From assembly GCA_964636355.1 (NCBI GenBank), contig CAZWRG010000006.1, positions 660 through 64,659 of the forward strand: DNA of 64,000 nt, given 5' to 3'. Below, one piece after another: positions 1,741-32,845 of the stretch. Numbering within the stretch: the first letter of the stretch is position 1; the number at the start of each line of letters is the position of its first letter. The notes under the pieces are model-generated. The model was given only the letters and a program-made list of their open reading frames with translations. It made no database searches and was not told where the DNA came from. Made by a program: the position numbers and the translations under genes. This DNA comes from an uncultured Candidatus Saccharibacteria bacterium (GTDB lineage: Bacteria > Patescibacteriota > Saccharimonadia > Saccharimonadales > JAGQNK01).

Positions 1741-1772
1741 AAAAGGTCAGAACTGTGAAAATGGTTCTGACC
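1741..1772 (-). terminator. Rho-independent terminator downstream of the DUF1697 gene
   Basis: GGTCAGAAC (1745-1753) pairs with GTTCTGACC (1764-1772). It is followed by TTTTT on the minus strand. Confidence 0.6.
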
Positions 1773-1789
1773 TTACCTACTTGGGCTTA

Positions 1790-1819
1790 GCTCACCACGA
1801 TCAGAGGAAGTTATAACTG
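1790..1819. repeat. Module-boundary repeat, copy A core
   Basis: GCTCACCACGATCAGAGGAAGTTATAACTG. Near-identical core in copies B and C. Contains the palindrome AGTTATAACT. Confidence 0.7.
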
Positions 1820-1881
1820 TTATCAAGATGGACTTAGCCACAAATTAGTGACCTTGGCCTGTTCGTATTGAGGCGAAACGA

Positions 1882-2415
1882 TTATGAATCTAAGCGCTCC
1901 TGGATCTTTCTGACAGTGTTACAGTTACGAACGGTCATATTGCGGTATAGGTCGGTGCCTACTATCTTCATCATCCCACTCTTTGTTACATTTTTTCTAT
2001 CAACTTTCCAAACTAGAGCACCGTGCACATACTTTACTTCATCAATTCCGGGTTTTATTGTGAGTTGTTCAATGACTGATTCGTCATGATATTTATCCCA
2101 AAGAAACATCACATCACATTTCATCTCGCTGCCGTTGGTCCATTTGATCGGTATTGAACGGACTATTGCATCAATATTTTCTTTATTCCTGAGCAGGACT
2201 TTTATATCCAGGCCAAATTCATTATTTATAAGCTGTTCAAGTTTCGTAGTAAGGTTTGCTTCAGAGTCATTTGAAGTAAAAAATATATTTCCACTATTGA
2301 TATAGGTCGAAACTTCATTGAAGCCAGCTTTGCTCATAGCGACTATGAGCTGTTTCATGTCAATTTTATTATTACCGCCAACATTTACTCCTCTAAGTAA
2401 CGCAACGTATTTCAT
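1882..2415 (-). CDS. DUF1697 family protein
   Basis: 177 aa. The N-terminal MKYVALLRGVNVGGNNKIDMKQL is the hallmark DUF1697 start. Confidence 0.75.
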   Translation of the reverse strand: MKYVALLRGVNVGGNNKIDMKQLIVAMSKAGFNEVSTYINSGNIFFTSNDSEANLTTKLEQLINNEFGLDIKVLLRNKENIDAIVRSIPIKWTNGSEMKCDVMFLWDKYHDESVIEQLTIKPGIDEVKYVHGALVWKVDRKNVTKSGMMKIVGTDLYRNMTVRNCNTVRKIQERLDS

Positions 2416-2431
2416 GTCTATATCATATCCT

Positions 2432-2460
2432 AAAACAAAAACAGAGGCAGAATATCTCTG
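2432..2460 (-). terminator. Rho-independent terminator-like hairpin
   Basis: CAGAG (2442-2446) pairs with CTCTG (2456-2460). TTTTTGTTTT follows on the minus strand. It sits next to repeat copy B. Confidence 0.45.
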
Positions 2461-2481
2461 TTAATATTGGTTCTAACCTTG

Positions 2482-2510
2482 GCTCGCAACGCTAGAGGGA
2501 GTTATAGCTG
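2482..2510. repeat. Module-boundary repeat, copy B core
   Basis: GCTCGCAACGCTAGAGGGAGTTATAGCTG. Preceded by GGTTCTAACC-TTGG, which is homologous to the copy A/D terminator arm plus CTTGG. Confidence 0.65.
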
Positions 2511-2572
2511 CGATAAAGAAAGACAGGCACCAAGGTGAGTAAGTTGCACAGTATTGACTAAAGTTAAAGAAT

Positions 2573-2923
2573 ATGCTATATATGTTAAATATGAGCATAC
2601 AAAAAGCTATTAGAGATATTGATGAAGGTGTTCGTGCTCGATTTTTAGACGGTAATCCCGTGGAGCTGCATCTTCGAGGACATCATCCTGATTTTGAAGT
2701 CGAAGAAACCCGCTACGGGCTTAGTTTTTCGATACTTGAAAGAAGTTCGATTAATCTTGTAGGTAGTTACTCTGTCAGAAATATCGTTACTATCGACGAT
2801 CCTGTGGTTATTTATGATGGCGCCCATTACTACAGTAATGACATTTTCGGCTCTTTCGTCAGTACTAAGACACTAAATCGTATTTCTTCAGAGCTTGGTC
2901 TTCCTTATACTTTTTCTCGATAA
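2573..2923 (+). CDS. Hypothetical protein (116 aa), the only plus-strand gene in the module array
   Basis: Longest ORF in this interval. Copy B could supply a -35 TTGGCT / -10 TATAGC promoter 60 nt upstream. No family recognised. Confidence 0.4.
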   Translation: MLYMLNMSIQKAIRDIDEGVRARFLDGNPVELHLRGHHPDFEVEETRYGLSFSILERSSINLVGSYSVRNIVTIDDPVVIYDGAHYYSNDIFGSFVSTKTLNRISSELGLPYTFSR

Positions 2924-3043
2924 TTATGGATCAATGGCATTATAAGCGTTGTCAATTGGCTTGCTCGGTCAAGACTTTCTGAAATTTTAAGCAACCTAAT
3001 GCAAGCCACCGATAATCTCATTAGCTGTCTTTATAGTCTTTAT

Positions 3044-3073
3044 CACTCACAACGATAGAGGAAGTTATAACCG
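3044..3073. repeat. Module-boundary repeat, copy C core
   Basis: CACTCACAACGATAGAGGAAGTTATAACCG. Starts 15 nt beyond the stop of the DUF1761 gene. Confidence 0.7.
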
Positions 3074-3087
3074 CAACAAAACAGGAT

Positions 3088-3513
3088 TTAGCTAAGCAAG
3101 CCTATCGTTAGACCTATTAAAGCAAACTCTACAACCACCCAAGTAGTATCAATCCACATTAACTTAAACGGACGTAATGCAAACGCGTACAAAACTATTA
3201 GCTGTGAAGCGGCTAGTCCAGCACCTATAACTGCACCGTCAAATAACCCATCAAACCATCCTTGAGTATCTGTGAGAATAACATTGAGCATAAACGCTCC
3301 AAATACGCTTGCCACAAGAACTATAGGCAAAATACGACTCATGTATGCCTTTTCAATATCTTTAGCCTTCACCCCGACGGCTTCCATCCAAGCCTTTCCT
3401 GCAAGACTGTTGCTGTACCAAACGAAACTCCACACCATACTAACGACAGCCGAGACCCCCACAGCTAGCCAGTTCACATTGCTCAACATTGCTGATAAAT
3501 CCATTTTTGCCAC
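3088..3513 (-). CDS. DUF1761 family membrane protein
   Basis: 141 aa with about 4 TM segments. NWLAVGVSAVVSMVWSFVWYSNSLAGKAWMEAVG matches the DUF1761 N-terminal pattern. Confidence 0.65.
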   Translation of the reverse strand: MAKMDLSAMLSNVNWLAVGVSAVVSMVWSFVWYSNSLAGKAWMEAVGVKAKDIEKAYMSRILPIVLVASVFGAFMLNVILTDTQGWFDGLFDGAVIGAGLAASQLIVLYAFALRPFKLMWIDTTWVVVEFALIGLTIGLLS

Positions 3514-3569
3514 TCCTACTTATTGAGCTAATTATCTCATAAAAAAGTTCCTACTCAACTCTGGGTATA

Positions 3570-3600
3570 TAAAAAATCAGAACCGAATTAACAGTTCTGA
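3570..3600 (-). terminator. Rho-independent terminator downstream of the 3709..4161 gene
   Basis: TCAGAAC (3577-3583) pairs with GTTCTGA (3594-3600). TTTTTT follows on the minus strand. The stem sequence is homologous to the 1741-1772 terminator. Confidence 0.6.
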
Positions 3601-3613
3601 CTTCGTCTAGTAC

Positions 3614-3628
3614 GGCTTGGCTCACATT
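3614..3628. repeat. Module-boundary repeat, copy D (left part only, degenerate)
   Basis: GGCTTGGCTCACATT matches the CTTGGCT..GCTCAC part of copies A and B. The GAGGAAGTTATAAC part is lost. Confidence 0.45.
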
Positions 3629-3708
3629 GGCAGACGCATTGCGAACAGCAAGCGTAGATTACGATGATTACAAGCTGAAATTTATCAAAGAAGTGTTGAT
3701 ATAAGACA

Positions 3709-4161
3709 TTAGACTGTTAGTAGTCTAGATGGTTCGATGTCTAGGTCTCTAAGTTCTTCTGGTACTTCTGCTGAAGCATGAAGCATTAGAGCATTTTTAT
3801 CTATAGTGCCAACAAAATATCCCATTAGAATTCTAGGTCCAAATTGGGGCATCCTCGATGCACCTGTATTATCTAGGAACATGTGTCCGTCATCGCTAAA
3901 TTGACCCATTGCGTCATCAATCTCTCCACTATTATCTGGTGCATACATAGTGAAGTCTACATGCCATCGGTCTTCTGAAATTTGTTCTGCTGACCTAATT
4001 CCAGCTGGAGACTCAACTGCATAATCTGGTGCCCCTGGAGGAAGCATGATTCTTATAGTGTACAAACCTAAACGCTGTAGTCGTTGTGGTTCAACCCTAA
4101 GTATCTTATCTGCCTCGTATACCTGCTCAGGAAGTGCTCTAACATATCGTTCTTTGCTCAT
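3709..4161 (-). CDS. Hypothetical protein (150 aa)
   Basis: ORF with a leaderless-type promoter: GACAAT at 4174-4169, then 7 nt, then ATG at 4161. No family recognised. Confidence 0.5.
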   Translation of the reverse strand: MSKERYVRALPEQVYEADKILRVEPQRLQRLGLYTIRIMLPPGAPDYAVESPAGIRSAEQISEDRWHVDFTMYAPDNSGEIDDAMGQFSDDGHMFLDNTGASRMPQFGPRILMGYFVGTIDKNALMLHASAEVPEELRDLDIEPSRLLTV

Positions 4162-4269
4162 TGGTAGTATTGTCTAGAAAATTCATAACCTTTGCAAGCA
4201 TAAGGATTAACAGAGACACGAATTCGAAAGCTAGATTTGGGTTATTAAATATAACAGATGTAAAATTCA

Positions 4270-4340
4270 TGGCTCCGGCGACTGGATTCGAACCAAGCGT
4301 TTCTACCACCTGATTTTTAGGCTCGCTTTACTTTAGCTTA
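4270..4340 (-). pseudogene. tRNA 3' remnant (T-arm plus acceptor 3' strand plus CCA), no 5' half
   Basis: Minus-sense ...GCGAGCCTAAAAATCAGGTGGTAGAAACGCTTGGTTCGAATCCAGTCGCCGGAGCCA. It has a TTCGAAT T-loop and a CCA end. No matching 5' acceptor (TCCGGCG) and no canonical anticodon loop. Confidence 0.5.
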
Positions 4341-4362
4341 CATCCGTTGATTGTCAAACTGA

Positions 4363-5403
4363 TTATTGAATTACTCGAACTTTTTTAAAGTTTTTACCGC
4401 TCAATCCGTCAATCTGCACATCTTCAAAGCTAAACTTAGTTTTTTCCAGTTGGCTTGGCGAAAGTATGACTTGTCTATAGCTATCAGCTTTAGGTTGTAG
4501 TACACCAACACCTACCCAGAACTTCATAATTGAACTTTTAGTTGTACCGACTGAAATCGTAGTGCCAGACGGTAGTGGTTGCGTGAACGCCATAACCTTT
4601 TCTGGCCTTCCTTTGTGATAACCAGGCTCCGCTTTAGTAGCCATATAGGCATTATGCAAGTGAAAGACTTTCTCTTGCCATTTATGGTCTTTTAACTGTT
4701 CGTCAGTCGCTTTAGTATTAAGCTCAACCATAGCTCTTTGAGCGTCATTAAGTTCAGGCAAGCCACCAGGCGTTTCTGCTGTTAGTTTTTCTAAGTTTGC
4801 TTGTAATGACTTATCAAAGGCTTCTTCTGACGAGAACTGACCGCCGACGGTTGTTATTGTCATTTTTAGGTTGCTAGGCTGGTACGACTTTAGAAAATCT
4901 ATGAGTGATTGGTAGCTGTCTATGTAAGCCCGAATGTCCGACATCGGTATGTTGTCTAGGCGGTTAATAATGTAGTCGTCAACAAAGAAATCAAACCATA
5001 CACCTGGCTCGTAAATCTCGCAAACAGGCTTTACCCAGTTTGAATAGTACATAAGTGAAAAAAGCTCTGCCCAATCAGTTTCAGGAGCTTCTTCTAGTCG
5101 CCATAGTTTATATGCGCCGTGTAGAAACGTTACATTAATCGGTTCGTTATTTTCGACATTAAGCTGGATGGCCTTCCTGACACTTTTTTGCAAGTCTTCA
5201 TTCGCTGAATACTTACGGAACTTTTTGGACATCAAAGCCTTAAAAATAGCTTCCACCAACTCATCGGTATTATCGGGCTTCTTTAATCCGGTCGGCTGTT
5301 TCAGTTCTTTAAGTTTTGTCTGTATATATTCTTGTGCTGTCATAATAATTTGGAGATGCGAGGCAGACATTAACCTGCCGTATGTAGCTTTGCAAGCTAC
5401 CAC
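4363..5403 (-). CDS. Hypothetical protein (up to 346 aa, start uncertain)
   Basis: Long ORF. In-frame starts at 5403 (GTG), 5370 and 5343 (MTAQEYIQ...). A TACAATCTGTTACAAT promoter-like element lies upstream. No family recognised with confidence. Confidence 0.6.
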   Translation of the reverse strand: MVACKATYGRLMSASHLQIIMTAQEYIQTKLKELKQPTGLKKPDNTDELVEAIFKALMSKKFRKYSANEDLQKSVRKAIQLNVENNEPINVTFLHGAYKLWRLEEAPETDWAELFSLMYYSNWVKPVCEIYEPGVWFDFFVDDYIINRLDNIPMSDIRAYIDSYQSLIDFLKSYQPSNLKMTITTVGGQFSSEEAFDKSLQANLEKLTAETPGGLPELNDAQRAMVELNTKATDEQLKDHKWQEKVFHLHNAYMATKAEPGYHKGRPEKVMAFTQPLPSGTTISVGTTKSSIMKFWVGVGVLQPKADSYRQVILSPSQLEKTKFSFEDVQIDGLSGKNFKKVRVIQ

Positions 5404-5583
5404 CTATTCTCGGTCATCGCATCGATAATATTGTAACAGATTGTAGGCAGTAGGTCGGTCTAAGAACCCAGTCAGTTTTTCGCCTGCTCAGTCGCTATAA
5501 GGCTGACAGGTCAGTTTCGGAACCAGATTACAGAGGCAAGTTGACTAATCACGATCGTTTTACCGGTTCCAACCGATTCAGAA

Positions 5584-5610
5584 GGTATAGGAACTGGACT
5601 CGAACCCTCC
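5584..5610 (-). pseudogene. Degenerate tRNA T-arm remnant
   Basis: Minus-sense GGAGGGTTCGAGTCCAGTTCCTATACC. It shares GGTTCGARTCCAGT with the 4270 remnant. T-stem pairing is broken. Confidence 0.35.
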
Positions 5611-5641
5611 AACAGGGGTAAATATGCAAGAAGTAAACTCC

Positions 5642-5675
5642 AAAATAAAGAAAGACCGGTCTAGGACACCGGTCT
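5642..5675 (-). terminator. Rho-independent terminator after tRNA-Asn-like copy (i)
   Basis: AGACCGGT (5653-5660) pairs with ACCGGTCT (5668-5675). TTCTTTATTTT follows on the minus strand. Confidence 0.55.
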
Positions 5676-5695
5676 ACCTCTGTTAGTGCTTGATC

Positions 5696-5779
5696 TGGCT
5701 CGGGAGGCCGGAATACTAGGGTATAATCCGCCCGTCTGCGAGCTATAGCTCGCGGGGGATTAGCGAACTCGGCAACCTT
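5696..5779 (-). pseudogene. tRNA-Asn 3' half copy (i), with a roughly 50-nt insertion in the T-loop
   Basis: Minus-sense AAGGTTGCCGAGTTCG[insert containing the GCGAGCTATAGCTCGC hairpin]TCCGGCCTCCCGAGCCA. The last 17 nt are identical to the tRNA-Asn 3' end. AGGTTGCCG matches its variable loop and T-stem. Confidence 0.6.
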
Positions 5780-5833
5780 ACATCGACTAAAATCGCTGTG
5801 GTTGCCTAGGTCCAAGCTCGACACCGGAAGCAA

Positions 5834-5860
5834 GAAAAAACGAGTCCAAAAGGACCCGTC
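5834..5860 (-). terminator. Rho-independent terminator after tRNA-Asn-like copy (ii)
   Basis: ACGAGTCC (5840-5847) pairs with GGACCCGT (5852-5859), with one G-U pair. TTTTTT follows on the minus strand. Confidence 0.55.
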
Positions 5861-5866
5861 TTTTCC

Positions 5867-5884
5867 TGGCTCGGGAGGCCGGAC
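5867..5884 (-). repeat. 18-nt exact copy (ii) of the tRNA-Asn 3' end
   Basis: TGGCTCGGGAGGCCGGAC equals 6057-6074. The preceding roughly 115 nt (to 6001) are hairpin-rich and begin with TCGGGAT, which resembles the tRNA 5' acceptor TCGGGAG. Confidence 0.7.
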
Positions 5885-6013
5885 AGCGGGTTTCACCCTT
5901 TTCCGCTTGCTTGAAAAGAAAATACCTTTGGTGCTTTCTTTTCTTCACTTCGCTTCACCGAACCGCTTTTGCCGAGGCAAAAGTTCCGGTTCGCATCCCG
6001 ATTCTTACGAATC

Positions 6014-6050
6014 AAAAGAAAAACGTCCAAACCTATAAGGCCTGGACGTT
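6014..6050 (-). terminator. Rho-independent terminator after tRNA-Asn
   Basis: AACGTCCA (6022-6029) pairs with TGGACGTT (6043-6050). TTTTTCTTTT follows on the minus strand. Confidence 0.6.
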
Positions 6051-6056
6051 ATTCTT

Positions 6057-6131
6057 TGGCTCGGGAGGCCGGACTCGAACCGGCAACCTCGAAGTTAACA
6101 GCTTCTTGCTCCACCATTGAGCTACTCCCGA
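6057..6131 (-). tRNA. tRNA-Asn (anticodon GTT), CCA encoded
   Basis: Minus-sense TCGGGAGTAGCTCAATGGTGGAGCAAGAAGCTGTTAACTTCGAGGTTGCCGGTTCGAGTCCGGCCTCCCGAGCCA. Cloverleaf folds by hand. Anticodon loop is CTGTTAA. U1-A72 as in E. coli tRNA-Asn. Confidence 0.9.
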
Positions 6132-6308
6132 ATATCTATTGTAAAAATATAAATGTACTTTACGGTAGTAGCCATGGTGTCGCAAGATTGCTCCACTCTT
6201 ACCTATTAAAAGCTACTCCCGAATATATAATCTAAAATTTGAATGTGCTTGAGAGTAGTCATGGTTGAGCAAGATTGCTCCACTCTTACCTATTAAAAGC
6301 TACTCCGA
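6132..6308 (-). repeat. Two tandem ~88-bp units, each an AT-rich promoter-like spacer plus a tRNA-Asn 5' part copy
   Basis: GCAAGATTGCTCCACTCTTACCTATTAAAAGCTACTCC(C)GA occurs at 6183-6222 and 6269-6308. It keeps the acceptor 5' strand and D-stem (TTGCTCCAC) of tRNA-Asn, with an enlarged D-loop. Confidence 0.7.
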
Positions 6309-6317
6309 ATATAATTG

Positions 6318-6352
6318 AGTTAGAAAGTTAGAAAGTTAGAAAGTTAGAAAGT
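6318..6352. repeat. Microsatellite (AGTTAGAA) x4
   Basis: Direct reading: agttagaaagttagaaagttagaaagttagaaagt. Confidence 0.9.
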
Positions 6353-6488
6353 GTTTTCTGTGTGCTTTGGCGCTTTGGCTTGCGACAACTGCTGAATTAT
6401 ACCTAACAGAGACAGAACTGGCAATACCATGTGAAGGTTTTGTGTTGAGCGGTCTCTATGCTGCTTTCTCTACGAAAGAGATTCGTTC

Positions 6489-6683
6489 TTAGTGATCTTC
6501 AAGCGTGTCAGTATGTTCATTGGATTTTTCTAAAGCAGGAGAAACAACCTCGATGATTTGATCTATTTTTTCAGTTGTTTTCTCATGCAGACCCTCTAGT
6601 CTACGAACACTGTCCTGTAATTGCTTTTGCCCTTTGTGTAGGGCTGACAATGTCTTTAGTGTGGCATCTTCGAAATCATTCAT
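6489..6683 (-). CDS. Hypothetical small coiled-coil protein (64 aa) coupled to smpB
   Basis: Its ATG overlaps the smpB stop (ATGA at 6680-6683). Acidic, heptad-like sequence. No family recognised. Confidence 0.45.
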   Translation of the reverse strand: MNDFEDATLKTLSALHKGQKQLQDSVRRLEGLHEKTTEKIDQIIEVVSPALEKSNEHTDTLEDH

Positions 6684-7150
6684 GAGTATGTTTTAATGCG
6701 GTCGGTTTCGCGTTGTTGGTCTTTTTTCTTGAGGGTTTGGCGCTTGTCGTATTGTTTTTTCCCGCGTCCAGCCGAGATGCGAAGTTTTATGTAGCGGCCG
6801 CCGGTTAGAATTTCTAGCGGTACAATTGTCTTTCCCTGTTGTTTGGCAGCGATAAGCTCATCGATTTCTTTTCTTTTGGCCAGCAGTTTACGTGACCTGG
6901 TTTGTTGCTCTTCAGGAATTTTAGCCGAATTATCTCCGGTAATAGTGGCGTTTAGCAGCCATAACTCGCCGTCCTTTACAGTGACATATGCGCCGCGAAT
7001 GTGACCATGACCGCGCCGCAGAGATTTGGTTTCAGCTCCAGTCAGCTCAATGCCCACGATCAAACCATCACCTAGCTCATAATCATGTCTGGCGCGGCGG
7101 TTAGATATTTTTTTGGTTTGATTTGGCTTCTTTGCCTTTTTCTTGGCCAT
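6680..7150 (-). CDS. smpB: SsrA-binding protein SmpB
   Basis: 156 aa. NRRARHDYEL, GIELTGAETKSLR and a basic C-terminal tail are typical of SmpB. Confidence 0.9.
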   Translation of the reverse strand: MAKKKAKKPNQTKKISNRRARHDYELGDGLIVGIELTGAETKSLRRGHGHIRGAYVTVKDGELWLLNATITGDNSAKIPEEQQTRSRKLLAKRKEIDELIAAKQQGKTIVPLEILTGGRYIKLRISAGRGKKQYDKRQTLKKKDQQRETDRIKTYS

Positions 7151-28264: not shown

Positions 28265-30637
28265 TCAGTCGCTCCCCAGATCAGAAACGTCCAGTGTAAC
28301 AGTAGCTCCCGACGATATTTGACCGCTAAGGATTCGATTTGCAACGGTATCTTCGACTCTTCGCTGAATAGTCCGGCGCATTGGCCGGGCTCCAAATTGC
28401 GGATCATAGCCCTCATCAACCAGCGCCAGAAGCGCGGCGTCGGTCAGATTTATTTGAATATTCTGATTGGCCAGATTTTTATTGACTGATTCCATCATCA
28501 GCAGCGCAACTTGCTTTAATTCATCTTGGCCAAGCGGCTTAAACAGCACGATTTCATCAAAACGGTTGATTAGCTCAGCCCGATAAGTACCGGCGCTAAT
28601 CAGGTTATTAATCAGCTGATCTTTAAAACCAGCATCCAGCTGGCCGGTATTGACTTGGTTTAGAATTTCGCTGGAACCAGCATTGGAAGTGGCAATAATG
28701 ATAGCATTTTGAAACGCTGCTGGCTTACCGCTTGTGTCAGTAAGCTGGCCTTCGTCAAGTAACTGCAAAAGCAAATTCAGGATACTTTCGTGAGCTTTTT
28801 CGATTTCATCAAGCAAAACAACAGAAAACGGCTGTTTACGAATTTTGAGCAGCAAACTGTCGGTTTCTGAGCCGGGATCGAGCAATCGACTGGCATCGCT
28901 GGCTTGTTGATATTCACTCATGTCCAGACGAATCATATTAGCCTCATCATCAAAAACCGTTGCGGCCAAAGATTTAGCCAGTTCGGTTTTACCGACTCCA
29001 GTCGGGCCTAGGAACAAAAAACTTCCGATAGGTCGGTTAGAGCTACCAACGCCGGCCCTCGACCGCCGCAGAGCACTGGACACAACTCTTACGGCATCGA
29101 TCTGATTAACCATCCGGCTATGTATTCTGTCTTCTAGTTGCAACAGGCTCTGGGCCTCCTGGGCTTGGGCAGCTGTGGCTTTGACGCCCAGCGTTTGCTC
29201 GATAGTTTTTTGGACACTTAAAGCGGTTATAACATTATTTTGAGCGTTAGCGGCAGATTGTTCCAGTAGCTTGATGGCCTTACCAGGAAAAGCCGAGTCC
29301 TGAATGTACTGCTCGCTTAAACGATAGGCCTCCTTAACGGCCTCAAAACTAACGATTTTTTTGGTTTGAAATTCAATATTTAAAGCGGCATCCTCGATAA
29401 TTTTAAGCGATTCTTCTTTGGATGGTTCTTGCATGACAACTGGATTCAACATTGAGGTCAGACCTGGGTTGGTTGTTTTTAGCCGCTGATAATCGGTGCT
29501 GCTAAAGGTTGTAATTAATTTTAATCGTCGGTTTTGAAGGATCGGCATCAAAATCCGCGACATATCGAAAGATCCTGTTCCCTCTTGGAAAAACAGCTGG
29601 GCGTCATCTAAGAATAAAATCATATTTCCAGCCCTAATTGCCTCGGCAAATAAATGAAGCATGATATTTTCGAGGTTGTGTTTATCCTCTGACAGGATGA
29701 CCGAAGCGTTTAAATTGACAATTTGATGATCTCTAAGTTTATTGCTGGCGCGATCTTCCAACAGCCTTTGCGCCAAAGCATAAACGGCTGAAGTCTTGCC
29801 TATTCCATAGTCGCCAACAATTGCAACGCTGCCAGTTTGATCGAGGCCATTAATAACCGCATCTATCACTTTACTGCGCGACATAAAATGAGAATTGCTG
29901 CGGCTTAATTGGATACTGCGACTAATATTGCTGCTGTAGCGCTCTAACATGGGCGTGAATCCAAACGCCCAATCCCGTCCAATGCCGCCAAAGTAAGGTT
30001 TTGGCATGTTTTGATAAGTCACAATTCTATCAAGCCAGGAATGAGCGGCTATAACATCCTCTTGTTTTATATTTCTAGCGGCTAATACTTCTAAAATTGC
30101 TGGCGAAGACAAAATTAAAGCTGACGTCAACGGACCAGCTCGGAGAGTTTGGCCAGCTGCTTGTTGAGGGTTTTGGATTTGCATGGCCATTTGCCAAATA
30201 TTATCTAAGTCATCAGGATTTTCACTCAGGGCATCAGCTACAAAATTTGGATCAATCAATAGCCGGTTGGTGATAAAAACTTCTTCCCAGTTGCCTGATA
30301 AAGATTGCCAGACGCTTCGCGGGGTGAGCGGCTGCTTAAGCTTGGCCAAAACAGATTGGTCAAGAACATCATCAATCGATTTTACAGATTTATTTGGCGG
30401 TAGTTTAGTAAGCTCGGTCTTATACCAAATGGCCCACATCGCACAAACAATGGCCAAACCTAGCAGCACATAACCAAACGAAACACCGGTAATTAACAGA
30501 TATGCGCCGCCTAGCAACAGAGCTGCGCCAAATAGTTTGGTTAGCAAAAAGCCAAACCGCTTCATACGAAGAGCCAATCGGGCCTTGCGGCTGCGGGTGC
30601 TTTTTAGGTTGGGGGGCAAAAGCTGGTTGTTCATCAC
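28265..30637 (-). CDS. Membrane-anchored ClpA/ClpB-like double AAA+ ATPase
   Basis: Two N-terminal TM helices. NBD1 has GDYGIGKT but ILFLDDAQ in place of the DE Walker B. NBD2 is canonical (GPTGVGKTE, VVLLDEIEKAH, GARPMRR). No ClpB middle domain is evident. Confidence 0.75.
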   Translation of the reverse strand: MMNNQLLPPNLKSTRSRKARLALRMKRFGFLLTKLFGAALLLGGAYLLITGVSFGYVLLGLAIVCAMWAIWYKTELTKLPPNKSVKSIDDVLDQSVLAKLKQPLTPRSVWQSLSGNWEEVFITNRLLIDPNFVADALSENPDDLDNIWQMAMQIQNPQQAAGQTLRAGPLTSALILSSPAILEVLAARNIKQEDVIAAHSWLDRIVTYQNMPKPYFGGIGRDWAFGFTPMLERYSSNISRSIQLSRSNSHFMSRSKVIDAVINGLDQTGSVAIVGDYGIGKTSAVYALAQRLLEDRASNKLRDHQIVNLNASVILSEDKHNLENIMLHLFAEAIRAGNMILFLDDAQLFFQEGTGSFDMSRILMPILQNRRLKLITTFSSTDYQRLKTTNPGLTSMLNPVVMQEPSKEESLKIIEDAALNIEFQTKKIVSFEAVKEAYRLSEQYIQDSAFPGKAIKLLEQSAANAQNNVITALSVQKTIEQTLGVKATAAQAQEAQSLLQLEDRIHSRMVNQIDAVRVVSSALRRSRAGVGSSNRPIGSFLFLGPTGVGKTELAKSLAATVFDDEANMIRLDMSEYQQASDASRLLDPGSETDSLLLKIRKQPFSVVLLDEIEKAHESILNLLLQLLDEGQLTDTSGKPAAFQNAIIIATSNAGSSEILNQVNTGQLDAGFKDQLINNLISAGTYRAELINRFDEIVLFKPLGQDELKQVALLMMESVNKNLANQNIQINLTDAALLALVDEGYDPQFGARPMRRTIQRRVEDTVANRILSGQISSGATVTLDVSDLGSD

Positions 30638-31116: not shown

Positions 31117-31506
31117 GTGAATATAAATCAAAAAACAGCTCAAGAGCAAATAAGCGAGATTATTGATAACAGTCCTGGCTGGAAGAAAGATGTTTTATCG
31201 CGAATTCGTGAGGTTATTTTAACGGCCGATCCTAGAATCATTGAAGAAGTAAAATGGAAAACTGCCTCCAGGCCAGAAGGCCTGCCAGTTTGGTCGCACA
31301 ATGGAATAATTTGTATCGCCGAAACCTGGAAAGATAACATAAAACTGGTTTTCTTTAAGGGTGCTAAAATGTCTGACTCCAAAAAGTTGTTTAATGCGCG
31401 GTTAAAAAGTGCCACTGATCGGGCGATTGAGTTTCATGAAGGTGACAATCTAGACGAACAAGGACTAAAGGAATTGGTCAAACAAGCTATAGAGCTAAAT
31501 AACTAA
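31117..31506 (+). CDS. DUF1801 (YdhG-like) domain protein
   Basis: 129 aa. VKWKTA...WSHNGIICIAETWKDNIKLVFFKG pattern. GTG start after AAGGGGG. Confidence 0.55.
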   Translation: MNINQKTAQEQISEIIDNSPGWKKDVLSRIREVILTADPRIIEEVKWKTASRPEGLPVWSHNGIICIAETWKDNIKLVFFKGAKMSDSKKLFNARLKSATDRAIEFHEGDNLDEQGLKELVKQAIELNN

Positions 31507-31508
31507 AG

Positions 31509-31532
31509 TAAAACCCCGTCACGTTGACAGGG
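31509..31532 (-). terminator. Terminator after tRNA-Gln
   Basis: CCCTGTCA pairs with TGACGGGG (8 bp, one G-U) in minus sense, followed by TTTTAC. Confidence 0.55.
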
Positions 31533-31540
31533 TCTCACTT

Positions 31541-31615
31541 TGGCTAGGGCGGAGGGATTCGAACCCCCGAATGCCAGGACCAAAACCTGGTGCCTTACCA
31601 CTTGGCCACGCCCTA
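31541..31615 (-). tRNA. tRNA-Gln (anticodon TTG), CCA encoded
   Basis: Minus-sense TAGGGCGTGGCCAAGTGGTAAGGCACCAGGTTTTGGTCCTGGCATTCGGGGGTTCGAATCCCTCCGCCCTAGCCA. Cloverleaf folds by hand. Anticodon loop is TTTTGGT. Confidence 0.9.
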
Positions 31616-31852
31616 ATATTCTAGAAAGCTTTATAATGTACAAGAACGTCAGTAAATGTTTTGGCCCATGGCCAGGACTATAACAATTTGGTTGCCTTAC
31701 GCAACGGCCTGGTGCCTTACCACTTGGCGACGCCCTAATAATCAAGAAAGCTTTATAATGTACAAGAACGTCGATAGGATTTTGGTCCAGGACTACAACA
31801 ATTTGGTTGCCTTACGCAACGGCCTGGTGCCTTACCACTTGGCGACGCCCTA
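31616..31852 (-). repeat. Two tandem units (122 and 115 bp), each a promoter-like spacer plus a truncated tRNA-Gln copy
   Basis: Copies at 31672-31737 and 31787-31852 keep the acceptor 5' strand, D-arm and anticodon stem (28 of 29 nt identical). A 31-nt insert (CCGTTGCGTAAGGCAACCAAATTGTTRTAGT) replaces the anticodon loop. T-arm and 3' acceptor are absent. Confidence 0.75.
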
Positions 31853-31969
31853 ATAAACAGATAGATTTTACCTTAGATATGCCCACTAGACAACTCCCTG
31901 ACCAAACACACACTATTTAGATCAACCAAAATTGGTAATAAGCATAACTAAGTTATAATTAATTTAATA

Positions 31970-32845
31970 ATGCGTGTTATTCATCCCAGCCAATTTGAGA
32001 CAATAAAAAAGCCCAAAAAGCGCTTTAAAGTCAAAAATTTATTGATTGTGGGGGCGGCTGTCTTAATTTTGTTGGGGCTTTGGCAGATAATCCCCTTAGC
32101 TCAAAATGCTCGTGACAATAATGTTTCTGAAAACTCCAATAACCAGCCACAAAATTCAGCTGCAAATCAGCCCTCGGCTTCTAAGACTTTAAGAGTTTTT
32201 CAAGCTGAGCAGTTCAAGCACTTGGCGTTTAGCACTAAATATCCTAACACCGTCATGCTGGAGCGGCCGCCATCAATTACTGGCGTAGAGGCAGCTGATG
32301 AAATTATTCAGGAGTTGGCTGAATCGCGTGGCTATAAATTGTCCAATGTGCCGGTTTCGTCGATCACTAAAATTGATGAACCGCGGCTGGACAGTGATGA
32401 TTTGCTTCAGCCGTTGGCTGCCCGGTCTTGGTCAAAATTAAAATCAGCTGCCGAAAAAGACAATGTGCCACTCGCTCTGCTGTCGGCTTATCGTTCCATA
32501 AATTATCAACGCACGTTGTTTGTTGGCCGTTTGACGGCTCGCGGCGCCACCATCAGTAGTATTGTAAACCGGCGTTCTGACAACCATATTCTTGATACAT
32601 TGAAAATCACGGCTCCGCCCGGCTACTCCAGGCATCATAATGGCTACACGATTGATCTTTGGTGCGAGGATGGCTCTGGGCAGTTTGTCAGAAGCTCTTG
32701 TTATAAGTGGCTAAGTAATGATAATTACAAAATTGCCAAACAAAACAACTGGATTCCAAGCTATCCAGATGGCGTGGAGTTGCAGGGCCCGGAGCCGGAG
32801 CCTTGGGAGTATGTTTGGATGGATAGCAGTTTTTTGTATAACTAA
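31970..32845 (+). CDS. M15B (VanY-like) D-alanyl-D-alanine carboxypeptidase, membrane anchored
   Basis: SAYRSINYQ, GYSRHHNGYTIDL and the C-terminal EPWEY motif are typical of the VanY/M15 family. Confidence 0.75.
   Translation: MRVIHPSQFETIKKPKKRFKVKNLLIVGAAVLILLGLWQIIPLAQNARDNNVSENSNNQPQNSAANQPSASKTLRVFQAEQFKHLAFSTKYPNTVMLERPPSITGVEAADEIIQELAESRGYKLSNVPVSSITKIDEPRLDSDDLLQPLAARSWSKLKSAAEKDNVPLALLSAYRSINYQRTLFVGRLTARGATISSIVNRRSDNHILDTLKITAPPGYSRHHNGYTIDLWCEDGSGQFVRSSCYKWLSNDNYKIAKQNNWIPSYPDGVELQGPEPEPWEYVWMDSSFLYN

Follow-up and report, generated by a model that had tools for sequence, protein, structure and literature searches.

Probable serial insertion at the 3' end of a tRNA-Asn gene, with separate hairpin units in its 5' leader, in a Saccharimonadales chromosome

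We analysed a stretch of 64 kb (the window) from the chromosome of a bacterium of the Saccharimonadales (TM7; candidate phyla radiation, CPR), in which smpB is followed by a tRNA-Asn(GTT) gene with partial copies of itself on both sides. Taken as a whole, the arrangement is probably best explained by serial insertion at the 3' end of the tRNA-Asn gene, through recombination of the large serine recombinase (LSR) type, and by separate hairpins in the 5' leader of the gene. Four classes of insert have precise GAGCCA junctions, occupied and empty alleles of the site are found, and an autonomous LSR element lies at the same junction; the terminal GAGCCA of the tRNA is the junction core. The units on the 5' side are a phenomenon separate from the 3' copies. 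The window was compared with related contigs and loci (L001 to L116), from which all the occupied and empty alleles come. The minus strand carries all features around the tRNA-Asn; the gene, the two copies of its 3' end (copy ii being the nearer and copy i the more distant one) and the segments behind them are the following.

6057–6131, minus strand: intact tRNA-Asn(GTT) with encoded CCA (ARAGORN; Rfam RF00005, 64.5 bits)
6050–6022, minus strand: terminator after the tRNA (scanner)
5867–6056, minus strand: alpha-type mini-element, 190 bp, with the terminator 6022–6050, three hairpins and the 18-nt copy 5867–5884 (z = -5.8)
5866–5834, minus strand: terminator after copy ii (fold -21.3 kcal/mol, z = -5.4, followed by a U run)
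5696–5866, minus strand: beta-type mini-element, 171 bp (repeat search and folding, z = -5.9)
5675–5653, minus strand: terminator after copy i (scanner)
5440–5695, minus strand: left region of the type-A island, with the terminator 5653–5675 and a T-arm-like remnant at 5584–5610 (eight-sequence alignment)
4363–5343, minus strand: cargo open reading frame (ORF) of 326 aa, conserved hypothetical (983 homologues)
4270–4357, minus strand: right end of the type-A island, formed by a complete but decayed 'type-2' pseudo-tRNA-Asn with the end ...CCAGTCGCCGGAGCCA (alignment)
3618–4269, minus strand: cassette with a 150-aa ORF (3709–4161), ending in ...GTGAGCCA, its GAGCCA at 3618–3623 (junction reading)
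1750–3617, minus strand: three cassettes, with a DUF1761 ORF, a 116-aa ORF (itself on the plus strand) and a DUF1697 ORF (Pfam, junction repeats)
3043–3071, 2480–2508 and 1788–1817, minus strand: junction repeat, GTTATAACTTCCTCT..GTGAGCCA-like, closing each of these three cassettes (repeat scan)

The gene itself is intact, as an earlier reading made from the sequence alone (the sequence-only reading) had it: ARAGORN recognises it, and its score passes the RF00005 gathering threshold of 29 bits. The last 17 nt of the tRNA, TCCGGCCTCCCGAGCCA, occur exactly three times in the 64 kb, at the end of the gene (6057–6073), at 5867–5883 and at 5696–5712; none of 100 shuffled sequences gave three or more matches, even with up to three mismatches allowed. 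Copy ii is identical to the tRNA 3' end over 18 nt (5867–5884), and copy i also has, at 5764–5778, the segment AGGTTGCCGAGTTCG, similar to the variable loop together with the 5' side of the T arm. The two downstream copies of the sequence-only reading are thereby borne out, and so are the terminators that it placed after the tRNA and after each 3' copy, two of them being flagged by the scanner and the third recognised by its fold. A terminator stands after the tRNA and after each copy because each inserted element begins with its own.

The segments that separate these repeats are mini-elements without a cargo gene, and their structure lies far above that of shuffled sequence (z about -5.9). 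The alpha and beta types are built alike: a terminator comes first, then part of the T arm or variable region in inverted copy, more hairpins, and a tRNA-like arm ending in GAGCCA. The beta element contains, in order, the terminator (5834–5866), a hairpin GGCAACC...GGTTGCC, the tRNA-like variable/T segment (5764–5778), an inserted hairpin and the 17-nt copy of the tRNA 3' end (5696–5712). Relatives of the alpha element are found directly 3' of the tRNA-Asn in L102, L094/L104 and L003, and homologues of the beta element in L091, L090, L105, L002 and L111; such cargo-less mini-elements of ~130–190 bp form families which recur in several lineages. The spacing of 171–190 bp reflects these families and not the decay of kilobase islands in the window genome. 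The 18-nt core has no exact match in viral contigs, and no phage attP was found. A miniature inverted-repeat transposable element was considered and rejected, the unit and core sequences being confined to the tRNA-Asn locus within the window and not dispersed.

Occupied and empty states of the site are found side by side in relatives. L092 and L105, from one metagenome, have 100% identical flanks, and L105 has 166 bp more after the tRNA; these are a beta mini-element bounded by the 18-nt repeat, and the site in L092 is empty. Similarly, L094 and L104 (flanks 99.8% and 98.7% identical) differ by a 672-bp cassette, present in L104, with GAGCCAA at both junctions. Autonomous elements are also seen at this site: L088 and L106 share 5.75 kb of one LSR element at 99.7% identity, while their host flanks are just 73–82% identical. 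This element is joined to the real tRNA in L088 and to the pseudo-tRNA ending a 3.7-kb type-A island in L106; both junctions read ...GAGCCA/AGATTG (slash at the junction), and the L106 element (7.4 kb) has GAGCCA at both ends. The proteins of L101 and L088 contain the Pfam domains Resolvase, Recombinase and Zn_ribbon_recom, and so does the protein of L109 (precomputed hits). The LSR genes run antisense into the tRNA-Asn in L012, L088, L101, L010, L008, L018 and L097 (coordinates L088 1209–2708, L101 4197–5771, L012 11108–12604), and their last 13 codons (WLGRPDSNRQPRS in the L088 element) are the reverse complement of the tRNA 3' part. The same gene in L106 ends after 3 codons within the pseudo-tRNA, so that the partner of the integration decides which C-terminus the protein has. 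L109, a close relative, has a type-A left region with an LSR gene 3.8 kb downstream of it. Around the core in the flank of L104 there is a TCCGGC-N12-GCCGGA symmetry. The sequence-only reading had offered two possibilities for the partial copies, scars of repeated integration and excision or expressed tRNA-like RNAs. The first holds for the 3' copies, given the alleles and the LSR elements of the relatives, and does not extend to the 5' units, for which the same mechanism gives no explanation; the full mobile elements present at the same site in related genomes tell against the second.

Behind the mini-elements lies the type-A island of 1.43 kb (5695–4270), which has conserved ends, one cargo ORF and a decayed pseudo-tRNA-Asn of foreign type. 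Its left region aligns over ~250 nt with those of L017 (two copies), L099, L106, L002, L109 and L113. Its right end is a pseudo-tRNA, since it aligns along its length with the whole tRNA-Asn gene; it also aligns with the right ends in L106, L099, L003 and L017, and is 81% identical to L017 15855–15975. Two T-arm remnants noticed in the sequence-only reading, at 5584–5610 and 4270–4340, are both present, but the second is not unrelated to the tRNA as had been assumed: it is the 3' part of this pseudo-tRNA (4270–4357), with a foreign-type copy of the tRNA 3' end at 4270–4286. There are two main sequence types of tRNA-Asn, that of the window, ending in ...GGTTCGAGTCCGGCCTCCCGAGCCA, and another, ending in ...GGTTCGAATCCAGTCCCCGGAGCCA; the window's pseudo-tRNA belongs to the other type, which indicates a foreign origin. 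The cargo of type-A islands varies by locus: the window has the 326-aa ORF, L017 a ClpB-like ATPase and L099 four other genes. Other contigs are homologous to the region of the 326-aa gene over 5439–4383 only, exactly between the two island ends, and elsewhere the gene adjoins serine recombinase, OLD-nuclease or TrwB genes. A 100%-identical protein is encoded in a contig of ENA sample ERZ22666135 among other neighbours, with DUF1697 on the upstream side and genes for a hydrolase and a GDSL lipase on the downstream side, which suggests that the cargo gene may have moved recently. The 326-aa protein has no match in Pfam or PADLOC, and neither of the two assigned any cargo ORF to defence or to recombinases.

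The whole array, consisting of the tRNA, the alpha and beta elements, the type-A island and then at least four cassettes, reaches ~1750. The flank and terminator at 3617–3570 are found directly 3' of the tRNA-Asn in L087, L093, L096, L098 and L104. The junction repeats of the window are 84–86% identical to repeats 3' of the tRNA-Asn in L017 and L013, which sit between unrelated genes there, and the cassette that distinguishes L104 from L094 is of the same type as those of 1750–3617. Between the cassettes of 1750–4269 the junction repeat GTTATAACTTCCTCT..GTGAGCCA is accompanied by a terminator. A further match to the junction repeat at 30048 lies inside a 790-aa ORF and was set aside as chance; Xer/dif-like and attC-like readings of the repeat, which had only weak similarity to the consensus sequences, were dropped.

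On the 5' side of the tRNA-Asn gene the following features are found.

6680–7150, minus strand: smpB (Pfam), then a 64-aa ORF
6396–6424, minus strand: sigma-70-like promoter TTGCCA-17-TATAAT of the tRNA-Asn transcription unit (scanner, 11 of 12 positions matched)
6318–6352, no strand assigned: tandem repeat of 8 nt (TTTCTAAC, read on the minus strand), 4.4 copies, in the gap between promoter and unit A (Tandem Repeats Finder, 100% matches)
6223–6308, minus strand: unit A, with a direct copy of tRNA nt 1–27 (with indels), an inverted copy of nt ~3–28 and a leader of ~28 nt (repeat search, Tandem Repeats Finder)
6132–6222, minus strand: unit B, built like unit A (fold -20.2 kcal/mol, z = -2.1)

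Tandem Repeats Finder gives a period of 87 with 2.2 copies over 6120–6313. Each unit starts with TCGG(G)AGTAGCT, which equals tRNA nt 1–12, and continues after an indel in the D-loop with GTGGAGCAA, which equals nt 17–25. The tail of the unit is an inverted copy of tRNA nt ~3–28 (score 28–32 against 12.5 ± 2.6 in shuffled sequences, none of 2000 being as good) and has no significant similarity to the tRNA 3' part in the shuffle test; the candidate that the units are decayed copies of the whole gene is likewise not favoured by that test. Because it joins a direct and an inverted copy of the same tRNA 5' segment, each unit folds as a closed hairpin. The sequence-only reading had described two tandem units carrying the first part of the tRNA; their period and their 5' copy agree with that description, and its view of them as 5' fragments does not stand, in that they are hairpins closed by an inverted copy. 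The units are 92% identical over 53 nt and, on this ground, look like a recent tandem duplication.

The nearest relatives (SmpB 83–87% identical; L109, L110/L111 and L114) have one homologous unit after a conserved promoter, the sequence GTATTGCCAGTT.TG.CTCTG...GGTATAAT being kept 5' of their tRNA-Asn; L113 has no unit upstream of its tRNA-Asn. The acceptor of these relatives differs (TCCCGGG), and both arms of the unit follow the local tRNA sequence. RNAalifold gives a closing stem of 8 bp in which one pair is G-C in three and A-U in two of the five sequences (four lineages), a compensatory change. L017, whose tRNA-Asn is of the other type, has a unit of 67 nt which is independent of these and likewise consists of a direct and an inverted copy. 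A unit-specific 22-mer has no exact match in the JGI metagenome contigs. The 8-nt repeat of the window is represented by one copy or by variant copies at the equivalent place in L109 (~6820–6850) and L111 (~770–800).

Units of a partly analogous kind are found at the second tRNA of the window, that for Gln, 25 kb from the tRNA-Asn units; ARAGORN reports just these two tRNAs in the 64 kb.

31616–31887, minus strand: two units in tandem (115 and 122 nt) that precede tRNA-Gln(TTG) 31541–31615 (sequence comparison)

Each of them combines nt 1–30 of tRNA-Gln, altered at one place (G to C), with an internal GTTGC..GCAAC hairpin and with a 3' arm which pairs with the unit's own 5' end, partly by G-U pairs. 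Unlike the Asn units, they have no significant inverted copy of the 5' part, and decayed whole-gene copies are possible in their case (p about 0.04, shuffle test). At both loci the first unit has the sole sigma-70-like promoter on its upstream side, and the stretch from the units to the tRNA is free of terminators, so the units should belong to the tRNA precursor. Both tRNAs of the window begin with U1 and were read as the U1-A72 type.

The wider setting of the locus is conserved. The SmpB relatives at 60–74% identity are all Candidatus Saccharimonadales or Saccharibacteria metagenome-assembled genomes (MAGs), and in most of them the order smpB then tRNA-Asn is kept, with a gap that varies from ~80 nt to 5 kb. 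The tRNA-Asn of the window type is identical in L009, L012, L013 and 22 of 23 metagenome loci; L009 and L012 have none of the partial copies, which are therefore dispensable. Neither ARAGORN nor Rfam finds a transfer-messenger RNA (tmRNA) gene in the whole 64-kb window, although smpB is present. A two-piece or ordinary tmRNA beside smpB was considered and rejected, as ARAGORN finds none and the ends of the remnants are of the Asn type (G73, U1-A72) and not of the Ala type. A group I intron of ~250 nt interrupts the tRNA-Asn at its anticodon loop in three related Saccharimonadales MAGs (L001 8157–8415, L007 934–1195, L011 10750–11000; Rfam RF00028, 89–97 bits), which is why ARAGORN misses the gene there. 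The contigs L110, L114, L115 and L116 break off 50–215 nt beyond smpB, either inside the stretch of the units and the tRNA or shortly before it; strain variation and repeats at this hotspot may have broken the assembly there.

The origin of the 5' units could also be sought in a second class of element inserting after tRNA nt ~12–27 and supplying a new leader and 5' end, the units being its attL-type scars. In L092 an insert of 324 bp separates a displaced TTCGGGAGTAGC fragment from the tRNA and carries a GIY-YIG-like ORF remnant, L102 being uninterrupted at this place; the independent unit of L017 and the dyad symmetry of the units, which recalls a recombinase site, also speak for such an element. 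However, neither a recombinase nor an empty/occupied pair was found for the hairpin units, one unit is stably inherited across lineages with 83–87% SmpB identity, and both arms track the local tRNA sequence, which fits a conserved hairpin better than a fossil junction; we consider this origin unlikely. The L092 insert (6080–6414) consists of a GC-rich hairpin and a short ORF (MYYGSTNDLKRRLKEHN...) which by eye is like a truncated GIY-YIG nuclease. That such 5' insertions are reversed 3'-type elements acting through the acceptor complement CTCCCGA was tried and rejected: the displaced fragment continues with nt 8–12 (TAGCT) and not with the T-stem.

All partial copies might instead be decayed tandem duplicates of the tRNA, produced by unequal crossing-over or Campbell-type homologous integration with no dedicated recombinase. 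The whole decayed tRNA-Asn at the end of the type-A island would fit this, as would the Gln units, which keep nt 1–30 and the 3' strand of the anticodon stem, the unit periods of 87–122 nt (about a tRNA plus spacer) and the CTCTCAAGCACA-like strings in the unit tails, which by eye resemble CTCCCGAGCCA. Against it, the cassette junctions are precise with just 6–7 nt shared, too short for homologous recombination, an autonomous serine-recombinase element uses the GAGCCA junction, and the tail of the Asn unit is significantly like the reverse complement of the 5' part and not like the tRNA 3' part. Duplication as a general explanation is thus quite improbable.

A reading of the partial copies as genes from which tRNA-like small RNAs of ~90–190 nt are expressed, ending in CCA and each having its own terminator, is very improbable: each 3' copy does end in ...GAGCCA with a strong terminator behind it, the mini-elements have an unusual degree of structure (z about -5.9) and a TTGACA-16-TAAAGT match was found by the scanner upstream of the island pseudo-tRNA, but the supposed -10 of this match aligns with the decayed D arm, copies i and ii have no promoter match and lie each directly behind the terminator of the preceding unit, the 5' acceptor strand is missing from them, and the elements, whose boundaries are recombination junctions, are absent in L009, L012 and L092 with an identical tRNA. 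The Rfam check of the fragments (3800–6800 and 31450–32000, E <= 10) returned only the real tRNAs and chance-level matches; units A and B, copies i and ii, 5584–5610, 4270–4357 and the Gln units have no tRNA-clan match, and the copies no other credible Rfam match, at this threshold. This second possibility of the sequence-only reading is not supported, as no fragment scores as a tRNA and the fragments are dispensable in relatives.

Under serial LSR-type insertion with separate leader hairpins, the smpB-linked tRNA-Asn(GTT) gene would be a chromosomal attachment site, and several classes of segment would have been joined head to tail at its terminal GAGCCA. Every segment would bring its own terminator first and a tRNA-Asn-like arm last, the arm being 6–7 nt long in the single-gene cassettes and 17–18 nt long in the mini-elements; in the type-A island it is a complete, decayed pseudo-tRNA. 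The joining would be site-specific recombination by LSRs encoded on autonomous elements, as found at the tRNA-Asn in relatives; the window segments, which have no recombinase, would be non-autonomous or fossil, moved in trans or lost by recombination between repeats. The terminator of each insert would keep the tRNA properly terminated. Concerning the 5' units, one copy is probably older than the split from the nearest relatives and would have been duplicated in tandem in the window genome; it would most likely have arisen as an incomplete copy of the tRNA gene that was reshaped through fold-back and was kept or tolerated as a leader hairpin.

Several points weigh against this explanation. Movement of the cassettes and mini-elements by LSRs is inferred from nothing but the shared GAGCCA junction, and recombinase activity in the window genome is putative: no LSR was found by tblastn in the 64-kb window, and no recombinase domain by Pfam in the ORFs of 1–9.3 kb. 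Neither an excised circle nor an attP was seen. Since hybrid attL/attR sites are not normally used again by serine integrases, the arms would have to stay attB-like for insertion to be serial. Precise loss of mini-elements could equally come about by RecA or by slippage between the 17–18-nt repeats. On the 5' side, the comparison of L092 with L102 shows that a real insertion (324 bp) can take place after tRNA nt ~12 as well, the covariation of the closing stem comes from the five sequences named above, and the data on the Asn units would fit an RNA-level function and a neutral DNA relic alike.

The genomes of Saccharibacteria and other CPR bacteria are tiny, and their routes of gene gain and loss are poorly known. 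This locus and its relatives point to one fixed hotspot behind smpB and tRNA-Asn, where serine-recombinase elements, single-gene cassettes and cargo-less mini-elements gather and differ between co-existing strains; it is a concrete place for strain-level variation. The recombinase/att pairs are suggested as testable genetic tools for a group which has very few, and the leader hairpins, a minor peculiarity in how tRNA genes are organised, lend themselves to testing. A wider joint reading, an integron-like capture platform at the tRNA-Asn 3' end served in trans by LSRs, together with leader hairpins as a functional element of the pre-tRNA, is rather unlikely. If true, single-gene cassettes, islands with a conserved frame and swappable cargo, and att-only mini-elements of ~170 bp would be exchanged between lineages, and the hairpins at tRNA-Asn and tRNA-Gln could control the folding, processing or stability of the precursor by an alternative pairing with the tRNA 5' end.

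We found no description of this locus in the literature on Saccharibacteria/CPR, serine recombinases, tRNA integration and genomic islands; its parts can be compared with several known systems. As in tRNA pseudogenes and partial duplications, the upstream units open with a sequence identical or nearly identical to the tRNA 5' end and are not functional tRNAs; the Asn units differ in being closed hairpins with an inverted 5' copy inside the leader of a live gene, conserved with a compensatory change, and in having partial analogues before a second tRNA. The 3' array resembles integron arrays in its fixed head site, its mostly single-gene cassettes on the same strand, its conserved junction repeat and its cargo varying by genome, but the head site is a tRNA and the likeness is one of layout only. 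According to Pfam no intI adjoins the head site, the flanking genes being smpB, the 64-aa ORF and glycoside hydrolases, and the junctions read as GTTATAACTTCCTCTATCGTTGTGAGCCA with no RYYYAAC...GTTRRRY inverse core (by reading; no attC model was run).

Genomic islands and integrative elements targeted to tRNA genes, including tandem arrays at one tRNA, were reportedly described by Williams in 2002 (Nucleic Acids Res 30:866). The window locus shares with them the direct repeat of the tRNA 3' end bounding the inserts, the intact tRNA, the tandem inserts and an occupancy that varies by strain. The classical islands, however, have tyrosine integrases within kilobase islands, whereas the relatives of the window locus have LSRs; the junction in the window is at the extreme 3' end (GAGCCA), and many inserts here are gene-less segments of 134–190 bp or single genes without an integrase. 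Pavlovic in 2004 and Bellanger in 2011 are said to have reported cis-mobilisable elements (CIMEs) and their accretion with integrative and conjugative elements (ICEs) in Streptococcus. These are likewise att-flanked segments without recombination genes in tandem with an autonomous element, as in L106; yet CIMEs are kilobase deletion derivatives with tyrosine integrases, whereas the alpha and beta elements are recurrent families of ~130–190 bp.

In staphylococci, SCCmec (staphylococcal cassette chromosome mec), psi-SCC and their composites at the 3' end of rlmH (orfX) are moved by the CcrAB large serine recombinases. Here too serine-recombinase elements are found at the 3' end of a conserved gene, in tandem composites with direct repeats of 15–18 nt, and some members without a recombinase rely on another element; the differences are that the target is a tRNA in a CPR bacterium, that the inserts are far smaller and that the recombinase gene runs antisense into the target. 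By this comparison the 3' side of the locus, which behaves like tandem islands targeted to a tRNA, appears closest in its logic to the SCCmec/psi-SCC composites and to CIME/ICE accretion, and what is unusual about it is a serine-recombinase family at a tRNA, a junction at the very 3' end and recurrent mini-elements consisting of att sequences only.

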